Shown: positions 1-58,735 of the stretch, piece after piece
Layout of the letters: each line of letters begins with the position of its first letter
How positions within the stretch are numbered: position 1 is the first letter of the stretch
Origin: Eledone cirrhosa
Taxonomy: Eukaryota
DNA length: 64,000 bases
Direction: 5' to 3'
Assembly: GCA_964016885.1 (NCBI GenBank)
Contig: OZ024752.1
Coordinates: forward strand, 17,174,001-17,238,000
Made by a program: the position numbers and the translations under genes
Notes under the pieces: generated by a model
Databases searched by the model: none
What the model was told of the DNA's origin: nothing
The model's input: only the letters and a program-made list of their open reading frames with translations

Positions 1-2042
1 CAACAAAACTGCGATGTCGGAGGTGCGACAACTTAGGAGGAATATGACTACAGTCTGGCTGGACTACAGGAAAGCTTTCGATTCTGTTCCCCACTCTTGG
101 ATGATAGAGGCCCTCCAACTTGCTAATGTCCCAGACATTATTGTCAGAGCCATAGAGAGGCTGTCTTCTTCTTGGGCTACTATCCTAAGGTTAAAGACAG
201 AGAGGGAGGACTCTATTTTCACTGATAAAATAAAATATTGCAGGTGTATATTTCAGGGGGACAGTCTCTCTGTGATATTATTCATCTTGTCATTAAACCC
301 CTTGTCCTTTCTGCTCAAGAACTGTGAGGGATACATCATTGGCTCACAGGAGGACAGAAATACGAACCTAACCCATAATTTCTTTGTGGACGATCTGAAA
401 CTCTATGCCAAGAACATGGATGGGCTGAAGAAAAATCTTGACCTGGTTACAACGTTCTCAAAGGATATAGGAATGGAGTTTGGCCAAGATAAATGCTCAT
501 ACATGACTGTAAAGCGGGCAAAAACAACAACCCAATCTAGCAACATTGTCATCAATGGCCTGACTGTTTCACCGATATCTTATGAGGACTGCTACAGATA
601 CCTGGGGATAGATGAGAACTTATCCTATAATGGTATCTGTAATAAAGAACGCGTAACCAAGGAATACTACACCCGATTAAGAAAGATCTGGTCATCGGAA
701 CTCTCTGCACAAAACAAAATAGTGGCTCACAATGTGTTTGCTGTGCCTGTTCTAACACCAACGTTTGGAATACTCAATTGGACGATAGACGAAATCCGAG
801 CAGTTGATGTTGGAACTCGAAAAATACTGAACAACACCGGAAACTTCCACATCAACAGTGACATAAACCGCCTTTACTTGAAGCGTAAGCAGGGGGGCAG
901 AGGCCTAACATCAGTCCAGACAACATTTGAATGTCGCATCTTATCTCTCCGACAACATCTACGAACCTCGAAGCGTAGGAGCCCGTTTCTCGAGCAAGTC
1001 TATCTGCATGAAACAGATAAGATCATGAGAGTTGGGAAGGAATTCCTCGAGAGATATTCCCTGTGTGATAATCAAAAACTCACACCCAGGGAAGTCGCTC
1101 AGCAGTATCGCAGTGAATCCATGGATGAAAAGCTGCATGCCTATCAGCAAAAAATCATGCATGGATATGTTGCCAGGAAGCTCCAGAGTGAGAGTAATAT
1201 AGATAAGGAAAGTAGTCTATTTTGGACCAACAACCGCTATATTGGCTCCCACTTTGAAGGATACGCTTTTGCAATCCAGGAACAGGAGATTAGCACGAAA
1301 TACCTGATTCACAAAAGAGATAGGGATGCAGGCAAAACACGTAGATGTGATAACAAGTGCAGACTCTGCAAAAAAGATAGCCCGATAATAAACACATTAA
1401 AAGCTACAGCAATGTGGAAGACATCCATGTACATAATATGAAAGAGTAAAAACCCCAATAAAATGCAGGCATAACAGACCAGATATTATGATATGGGATA
1501 GGGAGAAGAAAGCATGCACAGGAGTAGAAATTAGATGCCCAGCAGATGCCAATATAATATCAAAGATTAGTGAAAAGGAGAACATTTATGCAGAACTGAT
1601 GAGAAATCTGCAGATACTCCACCCTGATTACACCTTCAGATTTATGCCTGCAATTATTGGGGTACTGGGATATGTTAGTAACTGCCTCAATACAAATCTT
1701 GAGAAGCTAGGCTTCACAGGAACAGAAAGAACACAACTAGTTAGGAAATTACAAGTACAATCCATTAATGGAACAGTAAAAATATGTAAAAAATTCCAAA
1801 ATATTTGCATCTAATAACTGCATATACACATGTACAGATACAAAGCATATACACATGCACACATACAACTCAAAACGTACACATCCACACATACAATAAC
1901 ATCCATATCTACACACGCATGCATACATACATATCTACCTAGTTGATGTTGTGTAAATTTCAATGAGGGAGTCTTGTGTCTATGTTAGAAACCGACTCTC
2001 TCTCTATTGGTAAAACTTTGTGAAATTATAAAACCAGAAGAA
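1..2042 (+). mobile_element. R4/Dong-like non-LTR retrotransposon (RT + restriction-like endonuclease), 3' part, with deletions in the C-terminal region
   Basis: ORF 14-1441 has RT motifs WLDYRKAFDSVPH, IFQGDSLS, FFVDDLKLY and RKQGGRGL, plus a truncated CRLC knuckle. ORF 1488-1814 is an RLE-type tail (VEIRCPAD..KENIY). The 3' end ...AAACCAGAAGAA runs into (CATA)n. Confidence 0.88.
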
Positions 2043-2057
2043 CATACATACATACAC

Positions 2058-2628
2058 ACATGATGGCTGTCCCCTTGTTATCGAGTATGGCCATTGCACG
2101 ATATACTATTATTAATAACTATCAATTAATTCTATCGTGCAATGCCTGTGCGTGAGGAAACACTGTGCACTGAGCCAATCCCGCTCTCTGAGCGACAGTA
2201 GCTATAACCCAAAAAGAAGAAAAGATCAACATCATCGGTAACTACTGAGCCGCAGGTTTTATATGTGAGTTATCCCAGCTTCCTGAATTGCCTTCTCCTA
2301 GAAGAATTCCCCGACAAAGGCTAGGGGTCCTTCACTCCCAGTGGTTTAACCAAGCGGTACATGTGTATATACATATTTACACAATTTCGGATGGCCGTTG
2401 ACTCTTATGAGTTCTTCCGCCCTTTGTCAGGTTTTGTTTTTTGTCCTGCAGGGTGTCAAAAATCCTCCTCCTCACCAAGTAAACTTGGTGGGGTTGCCGG
2501 TTTAGTCGCCGACGACCCGACCATGCGACAGGTTGTACTGGGTTACATGTTACCAGTAGCACTCAAGAGTAACCCGACATACACACATACATGATGGCTG
2601 CCCCTCGTTATCGAGTATGGCCATTGCA
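2058..2628 (-). mobile_element. RTE-related non-autonomous element (5'-UTR-like segment plus RTE-type 3' tail)
   Basis: Related segments occur at ~6950-7190, 45030-45480, 45985-46250 and 62640-63200. The 3' tail CAATGGCCATACTCGATAAC..CAGCCATCATGT(ATGT)n is present twice and resembles the RTE ends at 44700 and 45935. Confidence 0.55.
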
Positions 2629-3069
2629 CAAGGAAAAAAAAAATGAAATAAAATAAAATAATAATAATAATAATAATAAATAAAAAAAAAAAAAGAAATA
2701 TATATATATATATATATATATACATACATATATACACACATACATACACATACACACACACATATACACACACACATACATTAATAACAATAATAATAAT
2801 AATAATAATAGCAATAATAATAATAACGACAACAACAATAATGTTTTCTTTATTAACCACAAGGGTTCACATAATGTAGACATTAAGGACAGTACAGGAC
2901 AATACAGGACGGTACAAATGGGCATTTCTGCGTGTAAAAAAACAGAGGTTGAAATAAAATAACAAAGAAAAATTCCCCAATACGGGGGAGACTTCCAAGG
3001 TTCGACAACAACAATAATAATATACATATTCATATATATATACACACACACGCACGCACATAAGCATAT

Positions 3070-6000
3070 CTACACACACACACACGATAGCAACTAACAG
3101 TACTGCGATCGAATGTGGCTTTTTAGCCCAGCCAATGATCTAAAATGTCTTGCACAGAGTCGGCAACCAAAACATTCACTGGGAATAGTCGGCTGTGGTT
3201 GGAGTTCGTGTACTTTTGCATGTCGCTTGAGCCCTCCTGCTGATTTACATTCTCTACCACATGTTTGGCAAGCATGATGAGTAGCATCTCCAACAGCAGC
3301 CTGGTAGTCAACCACTGGTCTTACTTTATGACTGCGAAGATGACTTTCGAGTCCAGCTTTGCTTAGGCAGAGTCTCGCACAGACGCTGCATGTCAGCACC
3401 ATAGGAGGACCCTCGCCGCCTGGAAGTGCAACAGCAATGCCCTTCCTCACATCCCGCTTTACCTTCTCGTGTGCGATTCGAGATGCCTCAAAGGCAACTT
3501 TTCCCTCATATACAGTCTTTCTCCATTTATTACGATCAGCAGCAATATTCTCCCATGTATCAGCAGAGATGTTAGCGTCTTTCAGAGAGGCTTTCAAGGA
3601 ATCCGTATACCTCTTTTTTGGTTTATGTGGCGGTCGTTTTCCTTTAACCAACTCTCCATAGAAGAGTTGTTTTGGTATTCTAGAATCCTTCATCCTGGCA
3701 AGGTGACCACTCCAACGGAGTTGTTGCTTAAGCACAAGAGCTTCTATACTGTCACACATAGAGCTTTCCAAAATCTCGACATCACTGATGTGGTCCCTCC
3801 AGTGAACGCCATGGATCCGTCTGAGACACATCTGATGGAAACGCTCCAATTTCTTAAGGTGGCGTCGATATGTGACCCAGGTCTCGCAGGCATAAAGAAG
3901 ACAAGAGAGTACACATGCCCTGTACACCTTTACCTTTGTCCTCCTGCATATGTCTCGCCGACCCCCAGAGTCGCCTTTCTAGCTTTCCGAAAGCATCACT
4001 TGCTTTCCTAATCCTAAGTGAGATTTCACCGTCAAGGTTGCCGTATCGATTGACAGTGCTTCCCAGGTAGACAAACTGATCAACCACTCCAAGTCGTTTG
4101 CCATACACATAGATGTTTGGTTCAGTGTATTGCTTACTAGGGGCAGGTTGGTACATGACGACGGTTTTCTTGAGACTGACAGTCAAACCCAGGGCAGTGC
4201 AAGCGTTAGAAAATGCATTCAAAATGTGCTGCATATCACTCTCTGTGTGCGCTACAAGATCTCAATCATCTGCATACAAGAGGTCTCTTATGATTGATGT
4301 AAATACTTTTGTCTTCGCAGCAAAGCGCCTGATGTTAAATATGCTGCCTGAGGTTCGATATCGGATGTAAACACCATGCTCGCAATTCCTGAATGCAATA
4401 CAGAAAACCATTGCAAAGTATATGGCAAACAGGGACGGTGCTGGAATATCCCCCTGTTTCACTCCATTTTTTACTGAGATAGGCTCCGACATGTTACCTC
4501 CGACATTAACCCAAGCCTTCATGTCGTCATGGAAAGACCTAACTAAAGCAAGGAACTTATCAGGACAACCAAGTTTCTGGAGAACCTTCCATAATGCATC
4601 TCTGTTGACAGTATCGAAAGCCTTTGTCAGATCGAGAAAAACCTGATACAGATCCAAGCCTTGTTGAATGCACTTCTGGAGCTGTCTAGCTGAGAAGATC
4701 ATATCAGTAGTGCCGCGTCCAGCACGAAAACCAAATTGACTTTCAGGAAGAACACAATCTGCAATGTGTGTCAGCAGACGGTCCAGAAGCACCCTACATA
4801 AAACTTTCCCTACGACAGAAAGCAATGATATACCTCTGTAGTTCCCACAATCATTCCTGTTACCCTTTCCCTTGTACAAGACCACCATTACTGCATCTCT
4901 CCAGTCCTCAGGTACGGATTCATTAGCCCATATCCTTCCAAACAAAGAGTGAAGATGTTGCAGGAGTCTCTCACCACCATATTGTAGGAGCTCAGCATGT
5001 ATGCCATCCATACCTGGAGACCTTCCACTGTTCAGCTTCGAGATAGCCGCCGCAACCTCCACAAGCGTCGGAGGTTCTGCGAAAGCTACTTTCACAGGAC
5101 TTTCCGGAATGAGATTGAGGAAATCTTCATTGACGACAGACGGCTGATTCAAAAGATCATCAAAGTGCTCTCGCCACCTTCGTAGAATTCCTTGTGAGTC
5201 ACGAAGAAGTTCTTTGCCATCCTTGCTGCGAGGCGGTGTCACCAGAGAAGAAGACGGTCCATAAACTTCACGCAAGAGACTGTACAACAGTTTTGTGTTA
5301 TTGGAATCTGACGCAGTTTGTATCTCATCAGCCTTCTCACTCCACCACTTATCCTTCATCTGAGAAAGACTCCGCCTAACACGTGATTTTACATCCTTGA
5401 GTTCCTTATGCAACATATTCTTCTCCTGTGGTTTTGCCGTCAAGTAGCGTGACAGAGCACACCTCTTATCAGCCAACAAGTCTTCTATATGTATATCATT
5501 CTCATTAAACCAGTCCTGATGTTTTCTCTGCACCAATCCCAGAACACGCCCGCCTACATCATAAACCGAATTTTTAAGGGTCGGCCAATCCTCACCAAGA
5601 TCTGCAACCTGCATCTCTTCTTCCAATGTCCTCTTCACATTTTTATCGTTAAGACGAGCAGCATTCAATCTTTTGGGCAGGGCAACACTAGGAGCCCGGA
5701 TTTTACGTTTAGTGATTAGTTTCACCTTTGCGCGTACCAGGCGGTGGTCCGCCCAGCACTCAGCTCCATGAAGAGCACGAACACACTGCACATCCTGTCT
5801 GTCACGCATCCTGACTAGGACGTAGTCCAAAAGATGCCATTCCTTAGATGCAGGATGCATCCATATGGTCTTGAATTTGTTCTTTTGTTGGAACATGGTG
5901 TTGGTAATACACAGATCCAGCTCCTCACACATCTGCAGCAGGAGCATACCATTGTTGTTACACTTTCCCACCCCATGCATTCCGATTACATTCCATGTGT

Positions 6001-11931: not shown

Positions 11932-12579
11932 TATAATATATAATATATGTAGTAATAAACACAGTAAATTGTGTGTCTAAAATTACGAGGGCTGAGATAC
12001 CACATTGGTTTGACAAATTTAACCTGAAGCAAACGGAAAATCTATGTATGTAAAACAGGTGTCTGTCTGTCTGTTTGTGTAACCGCATGAATTTCTACAT
12101 TTTACATAGGTTTCTGAAGTCCTATTACGCGTCGTAGGCTATTTTATTTTTCCGTACCTCGATTGTGGGGTCCCCCAGTGGCAGGTAACCCCCTTAAGCC
12201 TCTCGATTGGAGTCAGCAGCACTACTGCATAAAGGCCCCATAATTCCTGCAGTTTGTCTCCCATCTTCACCAAAATTAATCTTTTGTTTACTTATGGCTT
12301 ACAAATAAATTTGCAGGCATGCACTTGCGCAGAAATTCAGGTAGGGGACCCCTTGGGGGCAGTAAACCGACTTGATGAATGTTGAAGTGGATATCATCAA
12401 TGGAACAAAACGTCATAACTGCTTCAGTTGGTGTTTGGTTTTCACGAAGCGAGACGTATTGGTTACCAATGGCTTATAAAGGAAGGTGATCACATGAACT
12501 TTTACTTGAACTTATCAAGACGTAAAATAAGAAAATTTCAAAAAATTTTTTAAAAATTAACTTACTTACTAAAATTTTC

Positions 12580-12661
12580 ACTCCAACTAATTAGTTTCTG
12601 CAATGGGATAAAGACAGCTACGTAATATAACTGTCGAGAATTCATTGCGTCATCAGGGAGT
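12580..12661 (-). ncRNA. Type I hammerhead ribozyme motif (family A)
   Basis: Reverse complement of the motif at 13562-13643, with one substitution in the inner hairpin. Confidence 0.72.
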
Positions 12662-13561
12662 CTATTCTCAGCTAAGTCTCCAGGCAATGCGCGGACACTG
12701 GGGGCTCATATAAAAATAATAATAATTCGGTAGATGGAACAGCTAGCGGGGACTGGATTCCATGTACTGAAAAGCTCGCTGTCTCTGGTCAAATGGCAGA
12801 TTCTAAAGAATCAATCACGTGACACTGAGGCTAGTCGGTAGGAGTGGGAAGGTAAGATGACAGAAGCCTACTATCACACCAATAAATTAGTAGTGGTTTT
12901 GGCAGGTTTGCTAAAAAAATAAGTAATTTGGAGATAAATATAGAGAATTTAGTATATCTACTAACATATGCGTACAGATGTACGCTAATGCCAGCAAATA
13001 CACAGGTTAACGCAATGACGCAGATGACGCAATGAATTCTCGACAGTTATATTACGTAACTGTCTTTATCCCATTGCAGAAACTAATTAGTTGGAGTGAA
13101 AATTATAGTAAGTAAGTTAATTTAAAAAAAAAATTTTTAAATTTTCTTATTTTACGTCTTTTATATTATTGTTCTGCATCCTCCTGCATTGAACCACCTA
13201 GGTACTATGACTTAACCTGTGTATTTGCTGGCATTAGCGTACATCTGTACGCATATGTTAGTAGATATACTAAATTCTCTATATTTATCTCCAAATTACT
13301 TATTTGTTGAGCAAACCTGCCAAAACCACTACTAATTTATTGGTGTGATAGTAGGCCTCTGTCATCTTACCATCCCACTCCCTACCGACTAGCCTCAGTG
13401 TCACGTGATTGATTCTTTAGAATCTGCCATTTGACCAGAGACAGCGAGCTTTTCAGTACATGGAATCCAGTCGCCGCTAGCTGTTCCATCTACCTAATTA
13501 TTATTATTTTTATATGAGTCCCCAGTGTCCGCGCATTGCCTGGAGACTTAGCTGAGAATAG

Positions 13562-13643
13562 ACTCCCTGATGACGCAATGAATTCTCGACAGTTATATTA
13601 CGTAACTGTCTTTATCCCATTGCAGAAACTAATTAGTTGGAGT
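13562..13643 (+). ncRNA. Type I hammerhead ribozyme motif (family A)
   Basis: ACTCC-CTGATGA-C-GCAATG...CATTGC-A-GAAAC-TAATTA-GTT-GGAGT. Inner hairpin GACAGTTA/TAACTGTC. Confidence 0.75.
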
Positions 13644-13832
13644 GAAAATTTTAGTAAGTAAGTTAATTTAAAAAAATTTTTTTTAATTTTCTTATTTTAC
13701 GTCTTTTATATTATTGTTCTGCATCCTCCTGCATTGAACCACCTAGGTACTATGACATAACCTGTGTATTTGCTGGCATTAGCGTACATATGTGCGCATA
13801 TGTTAGTAGATATACTAAATTCTCTCTCTTTC

Positions 13833-13951
<119 letters not shown>

Positions 13952-13999
13952 CTACATATATATTACTACATATATATATTACTACATATATATATATAT

Positions 14000-16900
14000 G
14001 TCCTGGGTATGACATTAAACTACATCTAGTGGCAAGGCTCCAGTTCGGGAGTTCAGGAGATGTGGGGAATGTGGAGTTACCCCTTAGTTGTCATGACTCC
14101 CAGGTCTGCCCTGGCCCGGGGTGGTAGTACCTGTTAGGGCTCCATTTATGGGTTAAATAACTACCTTATTCGAGTGGCGCCGGTAAGGTATTGTCAGCCA
14201 TTGAAAAGAAATATGGAGAGTCGATCTAACAGCACTAGGGTTAGAGCCCCTAATTACACTGTCAAGGAGCAGCCTGGTCGTTATGACTCTGCTGGCTTAG
14301 AGCCACAGAGAGGGCCAGTGGATGATGGATCAGCTGTCCCTGAGACAAATATAAAGAATGCAGTTTTGTCCTGCAGAAGAGCCATCAAAATGGGCACTTT
14401 GAATGTGAGGACTATTCGAACGCTGGAGAAGAGAGAGGAGTTGGGACATCTGTTCGAGGAGAGTGGTATACAGATACTTGCGATCCAAGAACACAGGATT
14501 CTACACGATGAGCCCGTGAGGAGTGTGATGATCGGGAGGAAGAACCAGCTCATCACTACATCGGCAGTGAAGAACACAACAAATGCTGCAGTAGGAGGAG
14601 TGGGTTTTGTGTTCAGTGCAAAAACCAATCTGTTGGTGAGGGAAATAATGCCTATCTCCCCGCGAGTGTTGAGGGTGACCTTCAATGGAAACCCAAGACT
14701 GACAGTCATCTCAGCCTATAGTCCAACCGAGGGGGACAGTGATGTGAATGCCGAGGAGTTTCATGAGGAGGTGTGTAGAGCTGTCAACACCACTCAGGCA
14801 CACAATATCCTGCTTGTTTTGGGGGACTTCAATGCACATCTGAGTAAGGAGGGCAGTGAAGATCCTTGCTGGTACGTCCATAACAACACCAACCGAAATG
14901 GAAGACTACTGAGAGACACCCTGCTGGAGGCGAACTTGATGGCGACCAACCTAGGGTTTAGGAAGAATCTGGGGGAAGATGTGGACCTACATCTCAGATA
15001 TGCACCTGTCCAAGTCCCAGATTGATTTCATTCTGGTGAGGAAAAAGTGGCGGAATAGTGTTCTGAACACGGAACCATATAGCTATTTCAGTACACTGGG
15101 TAGTGACCACCGGCTTGTTATGAGTGAGGTCCGCGTGAGCTTAAGAAAGAGCAAGGCTCAGCCCCGGAGAACAATCTATGACTGGGGAGCTTTCAAGGAA
15201 GATGATAAGCTACAGGAGAGGTTCACAGTGGAAGTGAGAAACAGGTTTAGTGCTCTGTGTGGAGAGTCAGAGGAGAGAGAGATTGGATGGACTGAGGAGA
15301 GTGTGACGAGGAGGTACGGGCACTTCACCAATGCAGTGGCGAAAGCAAGTGAAACCCTGGTGCCGAGGAAAAAGAACAAAGGGAAGCACGTCAGCTCTGC
15401 AAACCCAAAAGTGTGTGCAGCCAGAGAACACCTGAAAGCTGCCAGGGACCAATTCTATGCTGATCCTACGGAGGAGAGGATGGAGACTGTGGAGGTGATG
15501 AGGGAGGAGCTCTGTGCCGCTTGCACTGAGGTCAGAGAGGAGGCACTGATAGAGAAGATCAGAAGTGTGGAGAGAGCGGTTGACAGATCTGGATGTAAGG
15601 AGAGCTGGATGATCATCAACGAGATCACAGGGAGGAAGAAAAGGTGTTCGAGTCAGATCCAGGGAACGGGGCCCGAGGATAGGAAGAGGAAATGGCTAGA
15701 CCATTTTAGGACCCTACTAGGAGAGCCACCGTCCACAGCTCAGAGCACTGGGGATATCAGGCGGCTGTTTGAGGAACTGGATGTTGAGACAGAGCCCTTC
15801 ACCAGAGAGGAGCTTCAGAGAGCCAGGAGGAAGATCAAGGAGGGCAAGGCTCATGGAGAAGATGGAGTGGCATCAGAGGTGATGAAGAGGTGTGATTTTG
15901 ATGATATCATCCTGGGGTTCTGTAACGGGGCACTGGAGAAAGGAGTTGCCCCGAATCAGTGGAGGATCAGTGGCATCGTCCCAGTGCCAAAGAAGGGAGA
16001 TCTCTCTGGCACCAACAACTACCGGGGGATCTCACTGACGTCACTTGTGGCAAAGACCCTCAACAGGATGATTCTTAACAGGATCCAGCCTGAGATGGAG
16101 AAGAAGCTCAGGGACAACCAGAACGGCTTCAGAGAGGGTAGATCAACCACCAGTCACATCCTGATGCTGAGGAGGATATTAGAGGGAGCTAGAGCAAAGT
16201 GCCTTCCTGCGGTCATGGTTTTCATTGACTTTAGGAAGGCCTTTGATTCTGTGGACCGTTACTGCCTGATGAAGATCTTACAGGCTTATGGAATCCCCAA
16301 GAGGATAGTGGACCTGATATCATTGCTCTACACCAACACCAAAGCCCAAGTCATTACACCTGATGGGATGACAGAGTTCTTTGAGATACTGGCTGGAGTG
16401 CTCCAGGGAGATACATTGGCTCCCTACCTTTTTATCATCGTAGTGGACTATTGTATGCGCCTTGCACTGGAGAAACACCAGGACTCTGGCTTTATTGTAG
16501 CACCGGCTCAGAGCAGGAGAGTTGGGGCGAAAAAGGTATCGGATGCTGAATTTGCCTACGACATAATTTTGGTGACAAATACAGTGAAGGAGGCAGAGGA
16601 TTTGATGCGGGAGGTTGAGACTGTGTCGATGAGTGTGGGGCTGAGAATGAATGAGACTAAAACAAAATATCTGGTAGAGAATGTTGAGAAGCCAGAGGGG
16701 ATCACTAATGTAGGCGGGAAGCCGCTGGAATTGGTTGAGGACTTCCTGTATTTGGGAGCAAAGATTGGGAATGCGGAGGATGATGTGGTTGAGAGGAAGA
16801 GCAAGGCCTGGGCGGCGTGTCACAGCTTGAGATCGGTGTGGAAGTCGGACCTTCGTAGAGACCTGAAAATCCGCCTCTTCATTGCTGTAGTGGAGTCTGT

Positions 16901-17307
16901 GCTGCTGTATGGGTCTGAGACTTGGACACTGACCAAAAGACTCACTCAGATGGTGGATGGGTGCTACACGAGAATGCTGAGGATGGCTCTGAACATTAAT
17001 CAGTATACACTGAGGATGAAAAACTCAGAGCTGTATGGGAGCATCCCAAAAGTCAGCTCAAAAGTGACACAGAGAAGACTGAGGTTGGCTGGACATGCTC
17101 ACCGACATCCAGAGTTGACATTGCACTCAGTGCTCCTTTGGGAGCCCCTACATGGACACACTAGAAGAGGAAGACCAAGGTTAACATATGTTGATGCCCT
17201 AAGGACAGACACTGGTTTGTTGGAGATGCAGGATATGGCAGCGATAATGAGGGACAGAGACCGCTGGAGAGAACTCGTCCATGGATCTCGGGAATTTTAC
17301 CCGCCTT

Positions 17308-17309
<2 letters not shown>
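14000..17309 (+). mobile_element. Near full-length RTE-like LINE (APE + RT), with one frameshift and a mutated catalytic motif
   Basis: ORF 14174-15025 (GTLNVRT, IQEHR, LGDFNAH) and ORF 14979-17309 (SDHR, DFRKAFD, LQGDTLAP, FAYD in place of FADD, LYGSETW). Frameshift near the G-run at ~14970. The stop codon abuts (TA)n. Confidence 0.9.
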
Positions 17310-17356: not shown

Positions 17357-19211
17357 CGATGAATTAGTTTTGCGAGGTTTTTATATGAAATCGTGTGTCG
17401 AAACAAATATTGTTATACTTGGGGAGGGTCATATTTGTGTAATATTGCCAGAATTAATAACAGAACACATTCACTGTTTGGTTGGTTTTCGCTTTTCGCT
17501 TCTCTGTCTTTTATATCGGTAATCTAATTTATTCGGTCCTCAATGTTGCCATTGACTGACCAACGGTCAAAAATAATACAGATACAATATAGACACAAAC
17601 ACATATATATAGTTTATCAAAGTTCTTTCGTTGCACATCTGCAACATCGTCAGTGGTGCTATTGTTTCCTCCCGTTACATTGTATGTCTACGCCATCTTT
17701 ATTTAGTCTGTTTATATATTTATTTATTTATTTGTTTGTTTGTTTATTTTATTTTGTCTTCTTTGCGCATGCGTTTGCGTGTGTGTATAGTGTTTTGTTT
17801 GATGTGTGTTCGTGATTGGGTGACTGTGTATCGGTTAATGTATTCTATCTTTACTAGTGTGTGTTTATATGTGTTTGTTATTATTGTGCTTGTGTATGTA
17901 TTTATTTATTTATTTATCTATTTATTTATTTATTTATGCTTCTCTTAGGTCAGTGTTGTTTGTTTGGGTGTTGTTGTTATTCCATTCATTCTTTCTGTTT
18001 AGTTTTGGCCTTCTAAGTTCTATTTCACTGGCCTCTCTGATTTGCCTATCTGCTGGGTCATTTCTATGTTTAGATATTATTCTAATTTCTATGTTGTCTA
18101 TGTTACCGTCGTGTTGTTGTCTGGCATGTTCGTATAGTACTGACCCGTTTTTTCGTCCTTTTAGTTCCCCCCAGTGTTGGTCTATCCTTTCACCTATGCT
18201 ACGAGCTGTCTCGCCTATGTATGTTGTTATCATGTTTCTGCAAGTACCCTCTGTACATCTTATGCTATAGACTACGTTTCTAGTTTTACAGTTTATCCGG
18301 GGGTTTACCTTACATATGATACATTTCCTATTAGTACAGTGGGTTTTCTTAAAAGGGTAGGTTTTGCTGATCAGGGATTTTATGGTAGTTTCTGGCTTTT
18401 CTACCACCTTAATCTTTAAGTGGGTCTTTCTCAGGGCCTTTCTACACTGGTTAGCTAATTTCCCTCCAGGGGTAGCGTCAACAAACATGACACTCTGGTA
18501 TCTCTGGTTGTCGTACCATGAGGTGGCTTTCCCTATCTTATGTCTAGCCCTATCTAAGCAATTCCATGATTTGCTCCTGTATAATGGGCAAATTCCTTTC
18601 ATGTCCAGTTCTATGAGGGTCTTATACTTCTCCATGGCTCCTTCGTATACTCTGACTCTGTCTCTTTGGTTGTAGCCAGAGAACTGCATGCGGTTGATGA
18701 AGTGTTGGATGTGTCTTTCCATTTCTGTTGGGTCGCACATGCGGGACACATTCTTCATCACTCGTACCAAATCTGCGATCAGAATATTAAACTTAGCACT
18801 ACTGGACATTGCTGAGTTTTTGAGTATCAGGTATTTGGAGGCCATGGGTTTAGCATAGTGTGAGTGGAGAATTTGGGCTCTCTCGTCTATAGTGTTAATC
18901 CAGAGTTCCGTGTCTAATACAGGTAGTCTATTGTTAGGGTGTTTGGAAGGGTAGTCGATAGTTACAGTTATACTCTGGTGTATGGAATTAGCTATCTGCT
19001 GGATGCTTTCCATTGTGCTACGTTCTAAATCAAACTTGTTAGTGCTCTCTAGTGAGGATGTTCTTATAACTATATTGATATCGTCTACGTAACGAGAGTA
19101 CATGATGAGGTCTATGGAGCTCTCATTAAGGAGATCTTTAAGTCTCCTTTCCCACCATACCATAAAAAGGTTGGCAACATCACCAGCTATGCTGGTGATG
19201 TTACCAACGTT
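17355..19211 (-). mobile_element. Penelope-like element, 5'-truncated (RT C-terminal half + GIY-YIG endonuclease + 3' UTR)
   Basis: ORF 17934-19247: SRYVDDI, LPVLDTEL, a Cys-rich linker, and VVYSIRC...YIGETAR...R...H...E...LN (GIY-YIG). Confidence 0.9.
17616..17657 (-). ncRNA. Minimal hammerhead motif in the Penelope 3' UTR
   Basis: Reverse complement of 20009-20050. Confidence 0.55.
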
Positions 19212-20251
19212 GCTAACCAGTGTAGAAAGGCCCTGAGAAAGACCCACTTAAAGATTAAGGTGGTAGAAAAGCCAGAAACTACCATAAAATCCCTGATCAG
19301 CAAAACCTACCCTTTTAAGAAAACCCACTGTACTAATAGGAAATGTATCATATGTAAGGTAAACCCCCGGATAAACTGTAAAACTAGAAACGTAGTCTAT
19401 AGCATAAGATGTACAGAGGGTACTCGCAGAACATGACTACAACATACATAGGCGAGACAGCTCGTAGCATAGGTGAAAGGATAGACCAACACTGGGGGGA
19501 ACTAAAAGGACAAAAAAACGGGTCAGTACTATGCGAACATGCCAGACAACAACACGACGGTAACATAGACAACATAGAAATTAGAATAATATCTAAACAT
19601 AGAAATGACCCAGCAGATAGGCAAATCAGAGAGGCCAGTGAAATAGAACTTAGAAGGTCAAGACTAAACAGAAAGAATGAATGGAATAACTACAACACCC
19701 AAACAAACAACACTGACCTAAGAGAAGCATAAATAAATAAATAAATAGATAAATAAATAAATAAATACATACCCAAGCACAATAACAACAAACACATATA
19801 AACACACACTAGTAAAGATAGAATACATTAACCGATACACAGTCACCCAATCACGAACACACATCAAACAAAACACTATACACACACGCAAACGCATGCG
19901 CAAAGAAGACAAAATAAAATAAACAAACAAACAAATAAATAAATAAATATATAAACAGACTAAATAAAGATGGCGTAGACATACAATGTAACGGGAGGAA
20001 ACAATAGCACCACTGACGATGTTGCAGATGTGCAACGAAAGAACTTTGATAAACTATATATATGTGTTTGTGTCTATATTGTATCTGTATTATTTTTGAC
20101 CGTTGGTCAGTCAATGGCAACATTGAGGACCGAATCAATTAGATTACCGATATAAAAGACAGAGACGCGAAAAGCGAAAACCAACCAAACAGTGAGTGTG
20201 TTCTGTTATTAATTCTGGCAATATTACACAAATATGACCCTCCCCAAGTAT

Positions 20252-20259
<8 letters not shown>
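19212..20259 (+). mobile_element. Inverted duplicate of the Penelope 3' ~1.05 kb (GIY-YIG + 3' UTR)
   Basis: Near-identical reverse complement of 17407-18455. ORF 19409-19732 repeats the YIGETARS..LNRKNEW segment, with a 1-nt deletion upstream. Confidence 0.9.
20009..20050 (+). ncRNA. Minimal hammerhead motif in the Penelope 3' UTR
   Basis: ACCA-CTGACGA-T-GTTGCA-GATG-TGCAAC-GAAAG-AA-CTT-TGAT. Stem I is weak. Confidence 0.55.
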
Positions 20260-26458: not shown

Positions 26459-28428
26459 GAAAATTGCAACTACTTCCTGTAGAAGAGAAAATTAGCACTA
26501 CTTCCTGTAGAAGAGAAAATTACCACTACTTCCTGTAGAAGAGAAAATTACAACTACTTTCTGTAGAAGAGAAATTTGCTACTTCCCGTAGAAGAGCACA
26601 TTACAACTATTTCCTGTAGAAGAGAAAAATACAACTACTTCCTGTAGACGAGAAAATTACAACTACTTCCTGTAGAAGAGAAAATTACAACTACTTCCTG
26701 TAGAAGAGAAAATTACAACTACTTCCTGTAGACGAGAAAATTACAATTACTTCCTGTACAAGAAAAAATTACAACTACTTCGTCTAGATAAGAACATTAC
26801 AACTACTTCCTGTAGAAGAGCACATTACAACTACTTTCTGTAGAAGAGAAAAATACAACTACTTCCTGTAGAAGAGAAAAATACAACTACTTCCTGTAGA
26901 AGAGAAAATTACAACTACTTACTGTAGAAGAGAAATTTGCTACTTCATGTAGAAGAGAAAATTACAACTTGCTGTAGAAGAGAAAATTACAACTATTTCC
27001 TCTAGAAGAGAAAAATACAACTACTTCCTGTAGACGAGAAAATTACAACTACTTCCTGTAGAAGAGAAAATTACAACTACTTCCTGTAGAAGAGAAAAAT
27101 ACAACTACTTCCTCTAGAAGAGAAAAATACAACTACTTCCTGTAGACGAGAAAATTACAACTACTTCCTGTAGACGAGAAAATTACAACTACATCCTGTA
27201 GAAGAGAAAATTACAACTACTTCCTGTAGAAGAGAAAATTACAACTACTTCCTGTAGAAGAGAAAAATACAACTACTTCCTGTAGAAGAGAAAAATACAA
27301 CTATTTCCTGTAGAAGAGAAAATTACAATTACTTCCTGTAGACGAGAAAATTACAATTACTTCCTGTAGAAGAGAAAAATACAACTACTTCCTGTAGAAG
27401 AGAAAAATACAACTACTTCCTGTAGAAGAGAAAATTACAACTACTTACTGTAGAACAGAAATTTGCTACTTCCTGTAGAAGAGAAAATTACAACTTGCTG
27501 TAGAAGAGACAATTACAACTATTTCCTCTAGAAGAGAAAAATACAACTACTTCCTGTAGACGAGAAAATTACAACTACTTCCTGTAGAAGAGAAAAATAC
27601 AACTACTTCCTGTAGAAGAGAAAATTACCACTACTTCCTGAAGAAAAGAAAATTACAACTACTTTCTGTAGAAGAGAAATTTGCTACTTCCCGTAGAAGA
27701 GCACATTACAACTATTTCCTGTAGAAGAGAAAAATACAACTACTTCCTGTAGACGAGAAAATTACAACTACTTCCTGTAGAAGAGAAAATTACAACTACT
27801 TCCTGTAGAAGAGAAAATTACAACTACTTCCTGTAGACGAGAAAATTACAATTACTTCCTGTACAAGAGAAAATTACAACTACTTCGTCTAGATAAGAAC
27901 ATTACAACTACTTCCTGTAGAAGAACACATTACAACTACTTTCTGTAGAAGAGAAAAATACAACTACTTCCTGTAGAAGAGAAAAATACAACTACTTCCT
28001 GTAGAAGAGAAAATTACAACTACTTACTGTAGAAGAGAAATTTGCTACTTCCTGTAGAAGAGAAAATTACAACTTGCTGTAGAAGAGAAAATTACAACTA
28101 TTTCCTCTAGAAGAGAAGAATACAACTTCTTCCTGTAGACGAGAAAATTACAACTGCTTCCTGTAGAAGAGAAAATTACAACTACTTCCTGTAGAAGAGA
28201 AAATTACAACTACTTCCTGTAGAAGAGAAAAATACAACTACTTCCTGTAGACGAGAAAAATACAACTACTTCCTGTAGAAGAGAAAAATACAACTATTTC
28301 CTGTAGAAGAGAAAATTACAATTACTTCCTGTAGACGAGAAAATTACAATTACTTCCTGTAGAAGAGAAAAATACAACTACTTCCTGTAGAAGAGAAAAA
28401 TACAACTACTTCCTGTAGAAGAGAACAT
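26459..28428. repeat. 28-bp minisatellite (TTACAACTACTTCCTGTAGAAGAGAAAA)n, ~70 units, with a 1105-bp higher-order repeat
   Basis: Diagnostic variants recur at 26571/27676, 26781/27886 and 26932/28037. Confidence 0.95.
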
Positions 28429-29505: not shown

Positions 29506-29573
<68 letters not shown>

Positions 29574-29844
29574 TAAAACATGTCTTTAGAATCACTAGAT
29601 ATAATATATACCATTTCCTCTCCTAATCACCATAATTAACCATATAAGAAATCAATTAGACCAAGCTATAAGAATAAAGGCTCCTATGAAGAAATCTCCG
29701 ACAAATAACCGAAAGCAGCCCCTTCGCGGTGGCTGCGATGGAGTATTTATCGAACATTTCGACAACATGTAGAAATCGACCAGATGTACAGTCAACTAAA
29801 CATAATTAGGTGTAAAATCAAACTTAGAAGAAATGCGTACATAC

Positions 29845-29918
29845 CTCTACCATGGTTTCATCCGTATTTTAAGACATCCGATAACAGGGAATGTCTAGAG
29901 CTTCGGATTCATCAGGAG
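29845..29918 (-). ncRNA. Type I hammerhead ribozyme motif (family B, inverted arm)
   Basis: Reverse complement of the family B motif. Confidence 0.8.
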
Positions 29919-30101
29919 TGAACTCAAAATTAGACATTTAATTTTCCAAAGTGATCGCGCCAAAAATACATTCAAAAATGGCTAAGAATCGTGACGTGGC
30001 AGCGGTCAAGCTAGAAAGGATGTGATTAGTTGCTTACAACGTTTTTGAATGTATTTTTGGCGCGATCACTTTGGAAAATTAAATGTCTAATTTTGAGTTC
30101 A

Positions 30102-30175
30102 CTCCTGATGAATCCGAAGCTCTAGACAGTCCCTGTTATCGTATGTCTTAAAATACGGATGAAACCATGGTAGAG
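30102..30175 (+). ncRNA. Type I hammerhead ribozyme motif (family B)
   Basis: CTC-CTGATGA-ATCCG...CGGAT-GAAAC-CATG-GTA-GAG. Predicted cleavage after 30172. Confidence 0.82.
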
Positions 30176-30757
30176 GTAATTAGGTATGTACGCATTTCTT
30201 CTAAGTTTGATTTTACACCTAATTATGTTTAGTTGACTGTATATCTGGACGATTTCTACATGCTGTCGAAATGTTCGATAAATACTCCATCGTAGCCACC
30301 GCGAAGGGGCTGCTTTCGGTTATTTGTCGGAGATTTCTTCATAGGAGCCTTTATTCTTATAGCTTGGTCTAATTGATTTTTTATATGGTTAATTATGTTG
30401 ATTGGGAGAGGAAATGGTATATATTATATCTAGTGATTCTAAAGACATGTTTTATGATATATAGCTCTGATTATTTAATTTATTAATTCTTCATTGAGCC
30501 ACAACGTGACCTGTTGCAAAACACATATATATCTATGACTTTATATATATGTAAACCTTTATATGTAATAATCTCCCGTTTGGTTGAGATACAATTTGGC
30601 TATATTGGGCTGCGCTTTCAGCAATAAGCCTACCCGCCGTAAGCAACTAATCACATCCTTTCTAGCTTGACCGCTGCCACGTCACGATTCTTAGGCATTT
30701 TTGAATGTATTTTTGGCACGATCACTTTGGAAAATTAAATGTCTAATTTTGAGTTCA

Positions 30758-30831
30758 CTCCTGATGAATCCGAAGCTCTAGACAGTCCCTGTTATCGGAT
30801 GTCTTAAAATACGGATGAAACCATGGTAGAG
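30758..30831 (+). ncRNA. Type I hammerhead ribozyme motif (family B)
   Basis: Same motif. Predicted cleavage after 30828. Confidence 0.82.
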
Positions 30832-31413
30832 GTAATTAGGTATGTACGCATTTCTTCTAAGTTTGATTTTACACCTAATTATGTTTAGTTGACTGTATAT
30901 CTGGACGATTTCTACATGCTGTCGAAATGTTCGATAAATACTCCATCGTAGCGACCGCGTAGGGGCTGCTTTCGGTTATTTGCCGGCGATTTCTTCATAG
31001 GAGCCTTTATTCTCATAGCTTGGTCTAATTGATTTTTTATATGGTTAATTATGCTGATTGGGAGAGGAAATGGTATATATTATATCTAGTGATTCTAAAG
31101 ACATGTTTTATGATATATAGCTCTGATTATTTAATTTATTAATTCTTCATTGAGCCACAACGTGACCTGTTGCAAAACACATATATATCTATGACTTTAT
31201 ATATATGTAAACCTTTATATGTAATAATCTCCCGTTAGGTTGAGATACAATTTGGCTATATTGGGCTGCGCTTTCAGCAATAAGCCTACCCGCCATAAGC
31301 AACTAATCACATCCTTTTTAGCTTGACCGCTGCCACGTCACGATTCTTAGCCATTTTTGACTGTATTTTTGGCGCGATCACTTTGGAAAATTAAATGTCT
31401 AATTTTGAGTTCA

Positions 31414-31487
31414 CTCCTGATGAATCCGAAGCTCTAGACATTCCCTGTTATCGGATGTCTTAAAATACGGATGAAACCATGGTAGAG
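31414..31487 (+). ncRNA. Type I hammerhead ribozyme motif (family B)
   Basis: Same motif. Predicted cleavage after 31484. Confidence 0.82.
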
Positions 31488-31701
31488 GTAATTAGGTATG
31501 TACGCATTTCTTCTAAGTTTGATTTTACACCTAATTATGTTTAGTTGACTGTATATCTGGACGATTTCTGCATGCTGTCGAAATGTTCGATAAATACTCC
31601 ATCGTAGCCACCGCGAAGGGGCTGCTTTCGGTTATTTGTCGGAGATTTCTTCATAGGAGCCTTTATTCTTATAGCTTGGTGTAATTGATTTTTTTATATG
31701 A

Positions 31702-32899: not shown

Positions 32900-32950
32900 A
32901 GATTCCTGATGATTTCTAAAGAATGAAACAGTTCTAGTCCTGTAGAATCT
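32900..32950 (+). ncRNA. Type I hammerhead motif
   Basis: AGATTC-CTGATGA-T-TTCT-AA-AGAA-T-GAAACAG-TTCTAGTC-CTGTA-GAATCT. Confidence 0.7.
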
Positions 32951-38391: not shown

Positions 38392-38975
38392 TATAAAGCA
38401 TGTCCATAGAATCATTCGATAATATATATACACCATTTCCTCTCCCAATTAGCATAATCAACCACACAAAAAAACAATTAAACCAGGCTATAAGATTAAA
38501 AGCACCTATGAAGAAATTGTAGATAGATAAACGACAGCCATCTATTAGCGATCAACCGCTATAGAATATTTACCCAACATTTCAATAGCACGTGGAAATC
38601 GATTAAATATACCTTCAACCATACACAATTAGGTATAAAATTAAAGTTAGAAGAAAAAATGCATATACACATACCAGGATTACGTTTCTACCCTTAGGGT
38701 TTCGTTCGCTTTTGGAAATATCCTATCAAGGATAAATTCTCGAGCTTCGAACTCATCAGGAAACAAACTCACTTGGACAAAGATTTTTCTTAAATGATCC
38801 CCGCCAGAAACGAATTCAAAATGGCTAAGAACTGTGACGTGGCAGTGGTCAAGTCAGAAAGAATGTGATTGGTGCCTTACGACGAGTGGGCTAGTTGCTA
38901 GAAAGCGCAGCCCAATATTGCCCAAATTGCATCTCAACCTTATGGGAGATTATCAAATATAAAGATTTACATATA
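38390..38975 (-). mobile_element. Diverged single unit of hammerhead repeat family B (hammerhead at 38684-38764)
   Basis: Shares ACCATTTCCTCTCC, AATGGCTAAGA, GTGACGTGGCAG and GCGCAGCCCAATAT with family B. Motif GTTTC-CTGATGA-GTTCG...CGAAC-GAAAC-CCTAAGG-GTA-GAAAC. Confidence 0.82.
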
Positions 38976-47431: not shown

Positions 47432-48675
47432 CTAAAGACGAATCCATTGTGGCAGAAAATAATCATTATAGTCAGCACTGTACGCATTTCGAAGTCCGGA
47501 TTTTTCTTTAGCTGGTGGGAAAAAGTAAGTAACTTTTCCTTTACATAAGAATCCAGCCCACCAGCTGAAACTACCTATAGAAGAAATCAAATGATCACTG
47601 CTAGATAGAATAGCCATATCTTCTGTTGCTGAGTTACCCTTTACAAAATAAGTACTATTGTCAAATATATTTTTTTCACACCATGGTATACCATTAGAAC
47701 AAACAATAAATATCACATTTTTATAATGAGATCGAAACCATTCTTTTGCCTTTATGAAATATTCCTTTGTAGCCACGTTATGTCCATGAGAGTTGTTAAC
47801 CATATCACCACGTCGTACATGTATTCCCACCAACGTCCAGTTCTTTATTGATGTATTTATAGAAATGTTTTCATGAGTTTTAACAAAGTTCCTTAGAATT
47901 CTAACAGCTTTCTGTTTAATGTTCTTTTTAAAAGTGAACTGGGAATGGATTTCGTCGAATATGTGTTCAAAATACTTGTAAGACTGTAAATATGTTCCAA
48001 TAATAATATTGTTATTATTACTAATATTAAAGAAACTAGGATCAAAAGAACTGGCATGGTGTTCATATTTTCTTTTAGCCTTATTGCAAGAAGATTTATT
48101 TTTCTCAAAACCGTATATATTAAATATTTTTTGTAAATTTATGTCATCATTACGAATAGTCACATTCATATTTTTTAGTCTTGCTAAACCTAAACCCGTT
48201 GCAAAAATAAACATTTGATTACCCAACCTTCCAATTAAATTGATGCACACGTATTTTTGTGTAGTTCTTTGTCTTTCCAAACTTGTAGTATTATTGTAGG
48301 TAGGTGGTTGAGTGCTTGTTGTTCGTGTTTCCAAACTTGTTGTGTTATGGTAGGTAGGTGGTTGAGTACTTGTTGTTCGTGTTTCCAAACTTGTAGTGTT
48401 ATGGTAGGTAGGTGGTTGAGTGCTTGTTCGTGTTTCCAAACTTGTAGTGTTATGGTAGGTAGGTGGTTGAGTAGATGTTATACGTTTCTTCAACATGGTC
48501 GTCTTAAGAAGAGTAGACGGTGTGGTGAACTTTTCCAATTTGCTATTTCTTATAAAATTGACTGGTGATTTGAAATTAACTATTCTTTGTTGAATTCCGG
48601 TGAAGGGAATTCCCATAAAGACAAAATACAGGGAAACAACAGCCAACATACAAAGCCATAGAAACTTGCGTTGAT
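47432..48675 (-). CDS. Alpha-1,2-fucosyltransferase (glycosyltransferase family 11, FUT1/FUT2-like), main coding exon
   Basis: Motifs GRLGNQMF, GTYLQSYKYF, GIHVRRGD, DMAILS..DHLISSIGSFSWWAGFL and FLPQW. N-terminal transmembrane segment FLWLCMLAVVSLYFVFMG. A likely splice acceptor TTTTATTTTACAG lies just before 48675, so the start codon is probably in an upstream exon. Confidence 0.9.
48265..48480 (-). repeat. Coding tandem repeat, 4 x 51-54 nt, (T)TSTQPPTY(H/N)NTTSLETR
   Basis: Visible in the translation and the DNA. Confidence 0.92.
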
Positions 48676-49062
48676 CTGTAAAATAAAAGTAGAAACTATG
48701 TAATGTAACTAGCTGGCCCCGTGCCGTCAAAAATGATGGCTCATTGTAATATCTATACATAATATAAACAAGAGATGTTTGTTGTTTGTTTCTTGGCACA
48801 AGAGTGATACGAATACACAAAGGCACAGCCAATGTGTAGTCAATTCGCTATACATATACACAGACAAGTGTGACGAACCATAGAACGCTGGACTGCTATA
48901 GTTTCTCACCACTCTCCCTTCCTCAGTCATCACATACATGTGTGTGTATGTAATAATCATTTCTCTAAGTGTGTCTGTTTATATATATGTATGTGTAGAT
49001 GCATGCGTGTATTTGTAATTGTATAGTCTACGTATCTTTCTAAATAAAACACACACACACAC

Positions 49063-55359: not shown

Positions 55360-55361
<2 letters not shown>

Positions 55362-55735
55362 AATTAGTATATCTACCAACATATGTATACCTATGCTAGC
55401 AAATATATATGTTATGTCTTAGTAACTTTGTGGTTCTATGCAAGGGGATGCAGAACAATTATATGAAAGACGTAAAATAAGAAAATTATTAAAATTAACT
55501 TACTTACTAAAATTTTCACTCCAACTAATTAGTTTCTGTAAGGGAATAAATATAGTTACGCAACGCAACCATAGAAAAATCCTTACGTCATCAGGGAGTC
55601 TATTCTCAGCTAAGGATTTCTCTATGGTTGCGTTGCGTAACTATATTTATTCCCTTACAGAAACTAATTAGTTGGAGTGAAAATTTTAGTAAGTAAGTTA
55701 ATTTTAATAATTTTCTTATTTTACGTCTTTCATAT
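55360..55735. mobile_element. Diverged family A element forming a fold-back (hammerhead at 55518-55599, minus)
   Basis: ACTCC-CTGATGA-C-GTAAGG...CCTTAC-A-GAAAC-TAATTA-GTT-GGAGT. ~55460-55585 is inverted at 55611-55735. Confidence 0.78.
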
Positions 55736-57457: not shown

Positions 57458-58735
57458 TTAGGGAGAAGTGTTTAGACGGGGTCCGTATTTGTTAATAAAG
57501 TAAGATTCCTTGCTGATGCGCTGGGTGTGGGTGGCATTATCTTTAAATTTGCAGAGGGGAAAGATTCTGAAGTTGGGATGATTTTGGGCGGCACAGGTAT
57601 CAATGTGTTCACTCAGTGGTATTTTCCTGTATTCCCGTATTTTAATTTGGGATCTATGGGCAGTCATGCGTTGGTGGAGGCTGTTTTTGGTCTGGCCTAT
57701 GTATTGTTCTCGACAACCTGAGCAAGTTAATACATATATTAGATTTTCCAATGCACATGTGAAATTGTGTTTTACTATAAAACGTTGTCCTTCTTTGAAA
57801 TAGAATTCCGAACCCTCTATTAGGTTGATGCAAATGCCACAGTTGGGTCTATCGCATTTTTTTACTGTGGGTTTCGTTGTTGTGGTTGGCAGTACTTTGG
57901 CATGTGTTAGGATGTTTTTCATTGACTTAGATTGTCTTTTGCTCTTTATGATATCGTGTGTTCGTAGGATTTGGTTCATTCTATGGTCCTTTTTCAACAC
58001 AGGGATGTTCTGGAGGATGGTGTCGAAGGCCTCATTGTTGAGGGGGTTGTGTGTGGAACTTTTAGTTTCGGTTGATTTACTTTAGGGTGTCTAAGGTCCT
58101 GGGTACTGAGTTTTAGGGCACGTTGGAATCAATTGTCAATTAGTGATGCAGGGTAGTCCCTGCCTATGAGTGTGTCCTTTAATTCTTGTAGCCGTAAGTA
58201 GCAGGTGTTTTTATTGGAGACTATAGTACAGATTCTCTTGGCTAAGTTGTAGGGAATATTAATTTTAACGTGTCTAGGGTGGCAAGAGTTGAAAGGAAGA
58301 TATTGCTTGGAGTCTGTGGGTTTGTAGTATATGTCTGTTTCTATTTTTTTGTTATGGATCTTAATGAGGATGTCGAGGAAGGGGAGTTGTTGATGGCTGT
58401 ATTCCATCGTGAAGTTAATATTCGTGTTGAGCCCATTTATAAGGGTGTAAAATTCTTTAAGTTTTTCGATGTTTTCGTGCCAAAGGATGAAGCAGTCATC
58501 TAGATATCGCTTCCAGTTCCTTTCTATGTGTAAGTGGAGAGTGTTTCCAAATTTGTTTAGGACTTTAGTGTAGAGGGTGATTTCCAGGTATCCCATGACT
58601 AGGTTGGCATAATTGGGGCTGTTTTCGTTCCCATAGCGGTCCCAGATTTCTGCCTGTAGGGTTTGTTATTGAAAACGAAGTAATTGTTCTCCAAGATAAA
58701 TTTGAGTCCCTCTATCACGAATTCAATATTCCAAT
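57458..58735 (-). mobile_element. Penelope-like element, 5'-truncated and frameshifted (RT + GIY-YIG)
   Basis: GTAMGTKTAP, RYLDDCF, LPFLDI, YYKPTDSKQYL and LIYVLTCSGCREQYIGQT...R...H...E...LN. Confidence 0.9.

Follow-up and report, generated by a model that had tools for sequence, protein, structure and literature searches.

The closest described relatives of the element reported here are the metazoan non-LTR retrozymes, which are non-coding tandem units of low GC content with one type I hammerhead each, occur in thousands of copies, are predicted to form self-paired circles and coexist with Penelope elements (PMC7229834; bioRxiv 10.64898/2026.07.22.740005). The preprint argues from phylogeny that retrozymes are non-autonomous Penelope derivatives. 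Penelope elements carry hammerheads of their own in their pseudo-LTRs, which are of type I with a short helix I, a long helix II, an extra nucleotide that separates A9 from a conserved G-C pair, and a palindromic loop III (PMC4209133); reviews describe these motifs as lacking tertiary contacts. The EN+ Penelope-like elements and their non-autonomous derivatives insert as partial tandems together with an inverted 5'-truncated copy, with a tail of 30-40 nt at one end and a preference for microsatellites (PMC8557442), and their reverse transcription starts internally on both target strands, downstream of the hammerhead (PMC11167929). In pseudoknotted hammerheads, the peripheries of stems I and II are joined by a Watson-Crick pseudoknot (PMC3088659; PMC7936874, on type III motifs in HDV-like circles of toad and termite); such contacts speed up hammerheads and usually mark fast ones.

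Here we describe a hammerhead-bearing family in the 3.0-Gb genome of Eledone cirrhosa, starting from two insertions in a stretch of 64,000 nucleotides (G000:C12:17174001-17238000), which we call the window. The family is probably a non-autonomous Penelope-like retroelement, i.e. a non-LTR retrozyme, whose type I hammerhead likely cleaves itself and is predicted to be stabilised by a pseudoknot, in which the sequence just 5' of stem I pairs with an internal loop in stem II. It resembles the metazoan retrozymes in its GC content of 0.37 (below the 50% limit used for retrozymes), in its 546-nt unit, which is predicted to be highly self-paired when folded as a circle (z -5.9, 30 shuffles), and in its tandem organization, with a type I hammerhead in each unit of the arrays L170-L174 and L177; the forward array of the window has one complete hammerhead. 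No ORF of at least 150 aa is present over 12517-13836, the unit has no similarity to Penelope proteins at E<0.2, and it lacks the RT and GIY-YIG ORF of an autonomous Penelope-like element. The unit is longer than the 150-450 bp given in PMC7229834 and falls within the 51-972 bp of the preprint. In contrast to the described retrozymes, stem II carries an internal loop and an inner hairpin, and a Watson-Crick pseudoknot is predicted instead of loop-loop contacts. The link to Penelope is drawn from insertion anatomy, whereas the preprint draws it from phylogeny.

The first-pass annotation of the window had presented 12517-13822 as a 546-nt unit of a Family A. The period of 546 nt, measured from cut site to cut site, stands, but the layout is that of a single insertion composed of an inverted arm (12517-13010) and about 1.5 forward units in partial tandem, which ends near 13836 within a (TC)n(TA)n run and holds one complete forward hammerhead. 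The features of this insertion and of the second one are as follows.

12517..13010, minus strand: inverted 5'-truncated arm, 97.4% identical to 13212-13705 (unit map)
12580..12669, minus strand: complete type I hammerhead (12580-12661) with C·A and the pseudoknot flank (model R1, 151 bits)
13011..13022, no strand: head-to-head junction with a 12-nt filler that repeats stem II letters (sequence)
13023..13092, plus strand: 5'-truncated forward copy that starts inside the core, hammerhead remnant to 13097 (unit map, R1 model)
13093..13638, plus strand: full non-coding 546-nt unit, cut site to cut site (unit map)
13554..13559, plus strand: predicted 5' strand of the pseudoknot, GAGAAU, upstream of stem I (pairing and covariation counts)
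13562..13643, plus strand: complete type I hammerhead (fold, alignment, R1 153 bits)
13582..13587, plus strand: predicted 3' strand of the pseudoknot, AUUCUC, on the 5' side of the internal loop within stem II (pairing counts)
13639..13836, plus strand: terminal partial unit, which passes the short-end site (~+70) and stops at the long-end site (~+190)
13821..13999, no strand: (TC)n(TA)n tract at the long end (repeat scan)
55360..55735, no strand: second insertion, of subfamily 2, with (TA)n on both sides

The inverted arm has its short 3' end about 68 nt past the cut site, where a (TA)n run is absent, and its hammerhead carries a single A-to-G change, by which the inner hairpin acquires a U·G wobble. 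The forward copy beginning at 13023 lacks C3-U4 and the 5' strand of stem I. Within the terminal partial unit, the stretch between the short-end and long-end sites is a Penelope-type tail, and the (TC)n(TA)n run that follows is likely the target microsatellite. In the second insertion, the minus arm contains a complete hammerhead (55518-55599) and a long end, and the plus arm starts in stem II (truncated copy from 55612) and has a short end. The left flank of the first insertion (12300-12516) is itself a repeat, and a LINE-type endonuclease/RT element (14138-17309, plus strand) lies directly after the insertion.

Across the genome, copies of the family occur on many chromosomes and have lost their 5' parts at varying points; often an inverted arm meets a short tandem head to head. 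There are two sites at which the 3' ends lie, ~55-85 and 165-205 nt past the cut site: 67 of 144 terminal copies have the short end, 63 the long end and 14 an unclassified one, and 130 of the 144 run into (TA)n or (TC)n. Any target-site duplication would be masked by the (TA)n in which the ends lie. Among 46 inverted insertions, 7 were unclassified, and all 39 that could be classified have one long and one short end. The combination of a partial tandem with an inverted 5'-truncated copy, a tail at one end and a bias toward microsatellites is the one described for non-autonomous Penelope-like elements, with which the family would also share internal starts of reverse transcription downstream of the hammerhead; it differs from the EN+ elements in its tail of ~115-125 nt rather than 30-40 nt and in having no RT or endonuclease ORF. 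ORF-bearing Penelope elements of the same genome, with RT and GIY-YIG domains, have the same anatomy, including a short and a long end in L096, L102 and L106. The two fixed 3' ends running into (TA)n, as a Penelope insertion signature, are new here, and on this anatomy mobilization of the family by Penelope enzymes is very probable.

An autonomous element with the terminal repeat of the family was not found in 50 GIY-YIG loci among the 150 listed of 10,596 candidates. A pattern designed to catch relatives that share loop III but have a short stem II gave 38 matches, nearly all of them deletion derivatives. Penelope ORFs adjoining family copies proved to be separate insertions or, in one instance, a chimera, in which the long end of a subfamily-3 copy adjoins a 5'-truncated RT and GIY-YIG element of a different Penelope family with no (TA)n between them. 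This fusion, a single case, fits a template jump by one enzyme. It lies in L220 (4400-6900, minus strand), where an inverted arm from a third Penelope-type family joins the two partners, of which the RT and GIY-YIG element ends in (TA)36, in a chain that is a candidate for template jumping. Units within arrays differ by 1-13 substitutions and give no clean pattern of circular versus multimeric templates.

The forward hammerhead at 13562-13643 has a 5-bp stem I (ACTCC/GGAGT), the box CTGATGA at 13567-73 followed by C13574, and A13624 followed by GAAA. Its stem II consists of a 6-bp stem IIa (GCAATG/CATTGC), a 7x7 internal loop and an inner hairpin of 8-9 bp (GACAGTTA/TAACTGTC); after GAAA come CTAATTAG and the GUU triplet, with the cut predicted at 13638/13639. 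Stem-loop III is palindromic (CUAAUUAG). The subfamily 2 hammerhead at 55518-55599 (minus strand) has GTAAGG/CCTTAC as stem IIa and a different inner hairpin that likewise pairs. The stem II alternatives named in the first-pass annotation both fold as claimed, as a 6-bp helix with a 7x7 internal loop and inner hairpin (z about -5, none of 200 shuffles as good). The core letters C3 U4 G5 A6 N7 G8 A9, G12 A13 A14, A15.1-U16.1 and H17 are all in place, with three helices around the core and stem I open; in 64 copies, pairing reaches 98.8% in stem I, 99.0% in stem IIa and 100% in stem III. Subfamily 3 (L111-L140) has its inner hairpin capped by a cUUCGg tetraloop, which is a very stable RNA loop.

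Compared with the Penelope pseudo-LTR hammerheads, the motif shares the type I topology, the short helix I and long helix II, the extra nucleotide after A9, the conserved G-C pair and the palindromic loop III, and the GUU triplet of the family is frequent in the published alignment (PMC4209133). It differs by an extra A between the G-C pair and G12, i.e. C11.1 does not directly precede G12; AGAAA occurs in one of the 56 rows of Fig. S3 of that paper, assigned to a Cotesia element by row order. The published motifs are without tertiary contacts by their description, whereas the E. cirrhosa family has a predicted pseudoknot, and it has no ORF.

An Rfam scan of the window gave no hammerhead match either at the gathering score or at E<=10. 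Matches to snoR144 at E<=10 were dismissed as chance, with 21 bits against a cut-off of 100. By comparison, a covariance model built from 64 genomic copies scored the five copies in the window at 76-153 bits and everything else at 14 bits or less. The proposal of a conserved hammerhead variant that strict descriptors would miss is thereby borne out, the criteria of Perreault et al. (2011, PMC3088659) having rejected any N10.1-N11.1 mispair. One unpaired position together with a long stem II is what lets thousands of motifs in one genome escape Rfam, and censuses of ribozymes therefore undercount.

The unpaired position itself is conserved. In the alignment of 64 copies (A1), the letters directly after A9 and before G12 pair in none of the copies, and the next pair is G-C in 62. 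Among 108 loci found without fixing these letters, there are 103 with C·A, 3 with U·A and 2 with C·C, with G-C as the next pair in 105; subfamily 4 has an A·A variant at this junction. A mismatch at the junction is common in this genome, since U·U or A·A takes this place in other hammerhead families, one of them located after an RT and GIY-YIG ORF. Beyond E. cirrhosa, U·U at this position is known from natural hammerheads that cleave (PMC3088659; PMC7229834), including HHR_Amex2 of the axolotl, with ~60,000 copies, in contrast to the C·A flanking a G-C pair in the family described here. As the Penelope consensus has an extra nucleotide after A9 and then a conserved G-C pair (PMC4209133), the C fits this extra nucleotide with the G-C pair intact, and the unusual letter is the A before G12. 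The non-canonical C-A closing position of the first-pass annotation is thus unpaired and kept, but was overstated, being better read as the Penelope bulge (A9/G10.1) plus an extra A. The C·A by itself is a minor variant and less novel than claimed, although C·A as such was not found in the parts of the literature searched, whose coverage did not extend to Lunse et al. 2017 and the 2020 retrozyme supplement, which could already show the motif. With C·A at this position, cleavage should be slower than with U·U (PMC3088659). The C and A probably form a tolerated 1x1 spacer that sets the register of the pseudoknot.

The core is not a chance occurrence, as a core pattern with C and A left free gave 3,638 exact matches in the genome and the reversed-pattern control gave none. 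With C, A and GUU all fixed, the combination seen in the window copies, 3,492 matches were obtained, in agreement with the claim that these three letters groups are kept. A further subfamily gave 1,636 matches (C and A fixed by the pattern), and a fourth was also detected. Units of subfamilies 1-3 are 511-571 nt long and 67-77% identical between subfamilies. The 96% conservation at the copy level was rejected as evidence of selection, because young copies give about as much anyway; the case for selection is made by subfamilies whose units are only 67-77% identical, and across these every catalytic nucleotide is kept, although conservation of the core across copies is partly by construction, most core letters having been fixed by the search patterns.

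Alignment A1 holds 64 of 75 distinct matches from three subfamilies; 11 were left out by eye, ten because a junction had replaced their 5' flank and one because of a local duplication. Its cells pair in 90.8% of cases compared with 36-46% in slid controls, where the cells count sequences and not events. The pair following the conserved G-C of stem II is G-C in 27 copies, C-G in 26 and U-A in 11, and over four subfamilies the second stem II pair is C-G, U-A, G-C or A-U. The neighbouring pairs thus covary while the C·A stays, in accordance with the long, covarying stem II proposed earlier.

Traces of cleavage were looked for at the 5' ends of copies. Most copies read through the cut site, and most templates would therefore have been uncleaved or circular. 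In 29 copies the cut site is preceded by a letter other than T; 12 of these start exactly at the site and have no upstream hammerhead, 16 are point variants and 1 is ambiguous. A pattern for 5' ends from -2 to +7 gave 162 matches, and a tally by eye of the 100 listed placed 20 at -1/+1 (6 at +1 and 14 with one T before), then 3, 3, 4, 1 and 3 at -2, +2, +3, +4 and +5, and 6 at +6, the rest being 46 fold-backs, 7 ends beyond +6, 4 indel copies and 3 ambiguous cases. For these 100 matches, 20 of the 34 starts within -2 to +5 are at -1/+1 (binomial p 2e-4; 1e-3 without duplicates). Scaled to 1,575 intact copies (~32 starts), ends amount to ~1.0% per position at -1/+1 and 0.3% at the adjacent positions; as a control, a stretch covering the base of stem II has 81 ends over seven positions in at least 3,638 copies, i.e. 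at most ~0.3% per position. Insertions with both arms starting at the cut site were kept out of the independent evidence, since a fold-back can produce them. The resulting excess of 5' ends where the cut is predicted, ~3.5-fold per position, is new here and suggestive of cleavage without being proof of it, as a pause of reverse transcriptase at the palindromic duplex starting at -1 could mimic it. From +7 to +16 past the cut site (13645-13654), a native 10-nt palindrome is a hotspot of junctions; the 46 fold-backs among the 100 listed truncations are perfect fold-backs at this palindrome, mostly counted on both strands.

How active the hammerhead is bears directly on the first alternative, according to which the family is mobilized by Penelope but its hammerhead is nearly inactive alone and has been retained as a structure that binds protein or depends on its help, with C·A and GUU limiting cleavage and so sparing long templates. 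It draws on the ~32 detected starts at -1/+1 against 1,575 intact copies and on the published record, in which Penelope hammerheads cleave poorly (PMC4209133), an Anolis Penelope element needed protein for cleavage in vitro, with cleavage dispensable for insertion, and had no ends at the hammerhead site in RNA-seq (PMC11167929), and 8 of 9 Xenopus dimers were uncleaved (bioRxiv 10.64898/2026.07.22.740005). We consider it unlikely, as all catalytic nucleotides are kept across subfamilies, 5' ends are in excess at the cut site, and pseudoknots of this kind usually accompany fast hammerheads. In structural predictions, stem III in isolation folds at 0 kcal/mol, a duplex through the palindromic loop III is placed at -11.4 kcal/mol, and in the nested fold of 13023-13830 an alternative fold competes and the probabilities of stem I and of stem III are ~0. 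With stems I and III outcompeted in the nested fold of a long transcript, cleavage may need the pseudoknot, a dimer or a protein. Cleavage in vivo is likely on the indirect evidence of the 5' ends.

The predicted pseudoknot would account for the long stem II, in that its internal loop would pair with the 5' flank of stem I, a feature missed in the first-pass annotation. GAGAAU (13554-13559) is complementary to AUUCUC (13582-13587) over 5-6 bp. In A1, pairs 1-5 hold in 96.6% of cells, and 25 of the 64 copies have a broken sixth pair. For subfamily 3, with 881 matches, a tally by eye of the first 100 gave G-C as the middle pair in 73, A-U in 21, G·U in 3 and A·C in 3, and genome-wide A·C is seen in 7 of 881 compared with ~160 expected under independence. 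In a tree of 27 subfamily-3 copies with intact flank, built with the pseudoknot columns removed, the change from G-C to A-U maps to one clade and one nested copy, which may be recombinant, and thus represents only 1-2 compensatory events within the family.

Stronger support than this within-family change comes from other families. All four other families examined that have a large stem II internal loop show a helix of 5-7 bp at the same position, formed by AAAGA/UCUUU, UGGAAA/UUUCCA and, in two related families, GAGUU/AGCUC; no such helix was found in families whose stem II is short or uninterrupted. In five family tests, 0-2.6% of local 11-mers reach as good a score; in a sixth, which is weak, 7.4% do. 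A 5-6 bp predicted pseudoknot with compensatory change, and with the same geometry in other families, is new here. Its architecture is the mirror image of that of the published pseudoknotted hammerheads, in which, as in E. cirrhosa, a stem is followed by an internal loop (6-10 nt) whose 5' side pairs and by an extra hairpin (PMC7936874); in E. cirrhosa the loop lies on stem II, its partner is the single-stranded 5' flank of the open stem I, and the motif sits in a genomic retroelement.

The second alternative holds that GAGAAU and AUUCUC make no tertiary contact in the active ribozyme, and that their match reflects a helix formed transiently during transcription, an off-switch, or chance complementarity of purine-rich and pyrimidine-rich tracts. 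The 1-2 independent compensatory events speak for it, as do off-diagonal scores of 6-10, which indicate that the tracts pair partly by composition, and pseudoknots are beyond the scoring of RNAfold. It is nevertheless quite improbable, since the helix recurs with identical offset and position in five families, which between them use four different sequence pairs, the own-family score is the highest in each row apart from related families, and the mirror-image architecture has been published for type III hammerheads (PMC7936874). That the pseudoknot serves as a tertiary contact is accordingly rated as quite likely. The last alternative, satellite DNA spread by unequal crossover with the hammerhead as a passenger, can point to the short tandem arrays of up to six cut sites (L170), but was rejected as very improbable because the copies are dispersed, share fixed 3' ends while their 5' ends vary, include inversions and have (TA)n as target, and is largely refuted by the one-long-one-short pattern in 39 of 39 inverted insertions.

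For the non-autonomous Penelope-like retroelement that we favour, the following course of events would account for the insertions. Tandem copies would be transcribed, and the hammerhead would cut after GUU, either as a monomer or as a double hammerhead formed through the palindromic loop III. A Penelope RT/GIY-YIG protein, presumably acting in trans, would nick both strands of a (TA)n target, and reverse transcription would then begin from two fixed internal sites, ~70 and 190 nt past the cut site, where the 3' ends of the copies are observed. Most templates would be uncleaved multimers or circles, and a minority would be cleaved RNAs yielding copies that start at the cut site. The joining of two cDNAs head to head would leave one long and one short end, the pattern seen in the inverted insertions.

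In a broader form, the motif would represent a subclass of type I hammerheads with a flank-loop pseudoknot on a long stem II, at whose junction a pair would be accepted as well as C·A, A·A or U·U. It would be common to several unrelated families of Penelope-dependent retrozymes and cleave efficiently in vivo, as recorded in thousands of Penelope-type insertions, some of which begin precisely at the cut site; we give this generalization slightly less than an even chance. If true, it would be direct evidence that Penelope enzymes copy animal retrozymes and that hammerheads associated with Penelope cleave their RNA in vivo. Cutting in vivo by hammerheads tied to Penelope becomes testable in a genome that holds copies starting at the predicted site, and the identity of the enzyme that moves animal retrozymes becomes testable with a family that shows the two-end Penelope signature and two predicted sites of RT start.

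Several other features of the window concern hammerheads and Penelope elements. Two related hammerhead families with a long stem II, a predicted pseudoknot and a paired junction (A-U, G-C) are located at 29565-31700 and 38660-38790 (minus strand), the first with a 656-nt unit in inverted plus tandem form. Hammerheads with U·U are found at 32906 (plus), 33349 (minus)/33986 (plus) and 54218 (plus), and the family of the last follows an RT and GIY-YIG ORF elsewhere (L094, L095, L098, L106). Further hammerhead-like motifs of Penelope type occur at 10713 (minus), 17653 (minus)/20013 (plus), 37398 (minus), 37884 (minus) and 52822 (minus)/53937 (plus), one of them with a U3-A8 core. The same core is present in the hammerhead of an ORF-bearing Penelope family (L091, L092, L096, L100, L102; 938-aa frame in L091), and its covariation has been reported for schistosome elements. 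A decayed Penelope element with a GIY-YIG domain lies at 57458-58081 (minus strand). The segments 17407-18455 and 19212-20259 form a 1,049-nt inverted repeat of 98.7% identity, overlapped by a stop-free frame of 437 codons that has no Pfam match.

The window is one unit of a ~60.6-kb tandem segmental repeat (1-3423 = 60580-64000) present in at least 8 copies at 17.00-17.46 Mb, which are 98-100% identical at the 12517-13836 insertion. Its ORFs encode a glycosyltransferase of family 11 (47432-48847, minus strand) and a C2H2 zinc-finger protein (3094-3978, minus strand), and a 28-nt minisatellite of 71 copies occupies 26459-28425.
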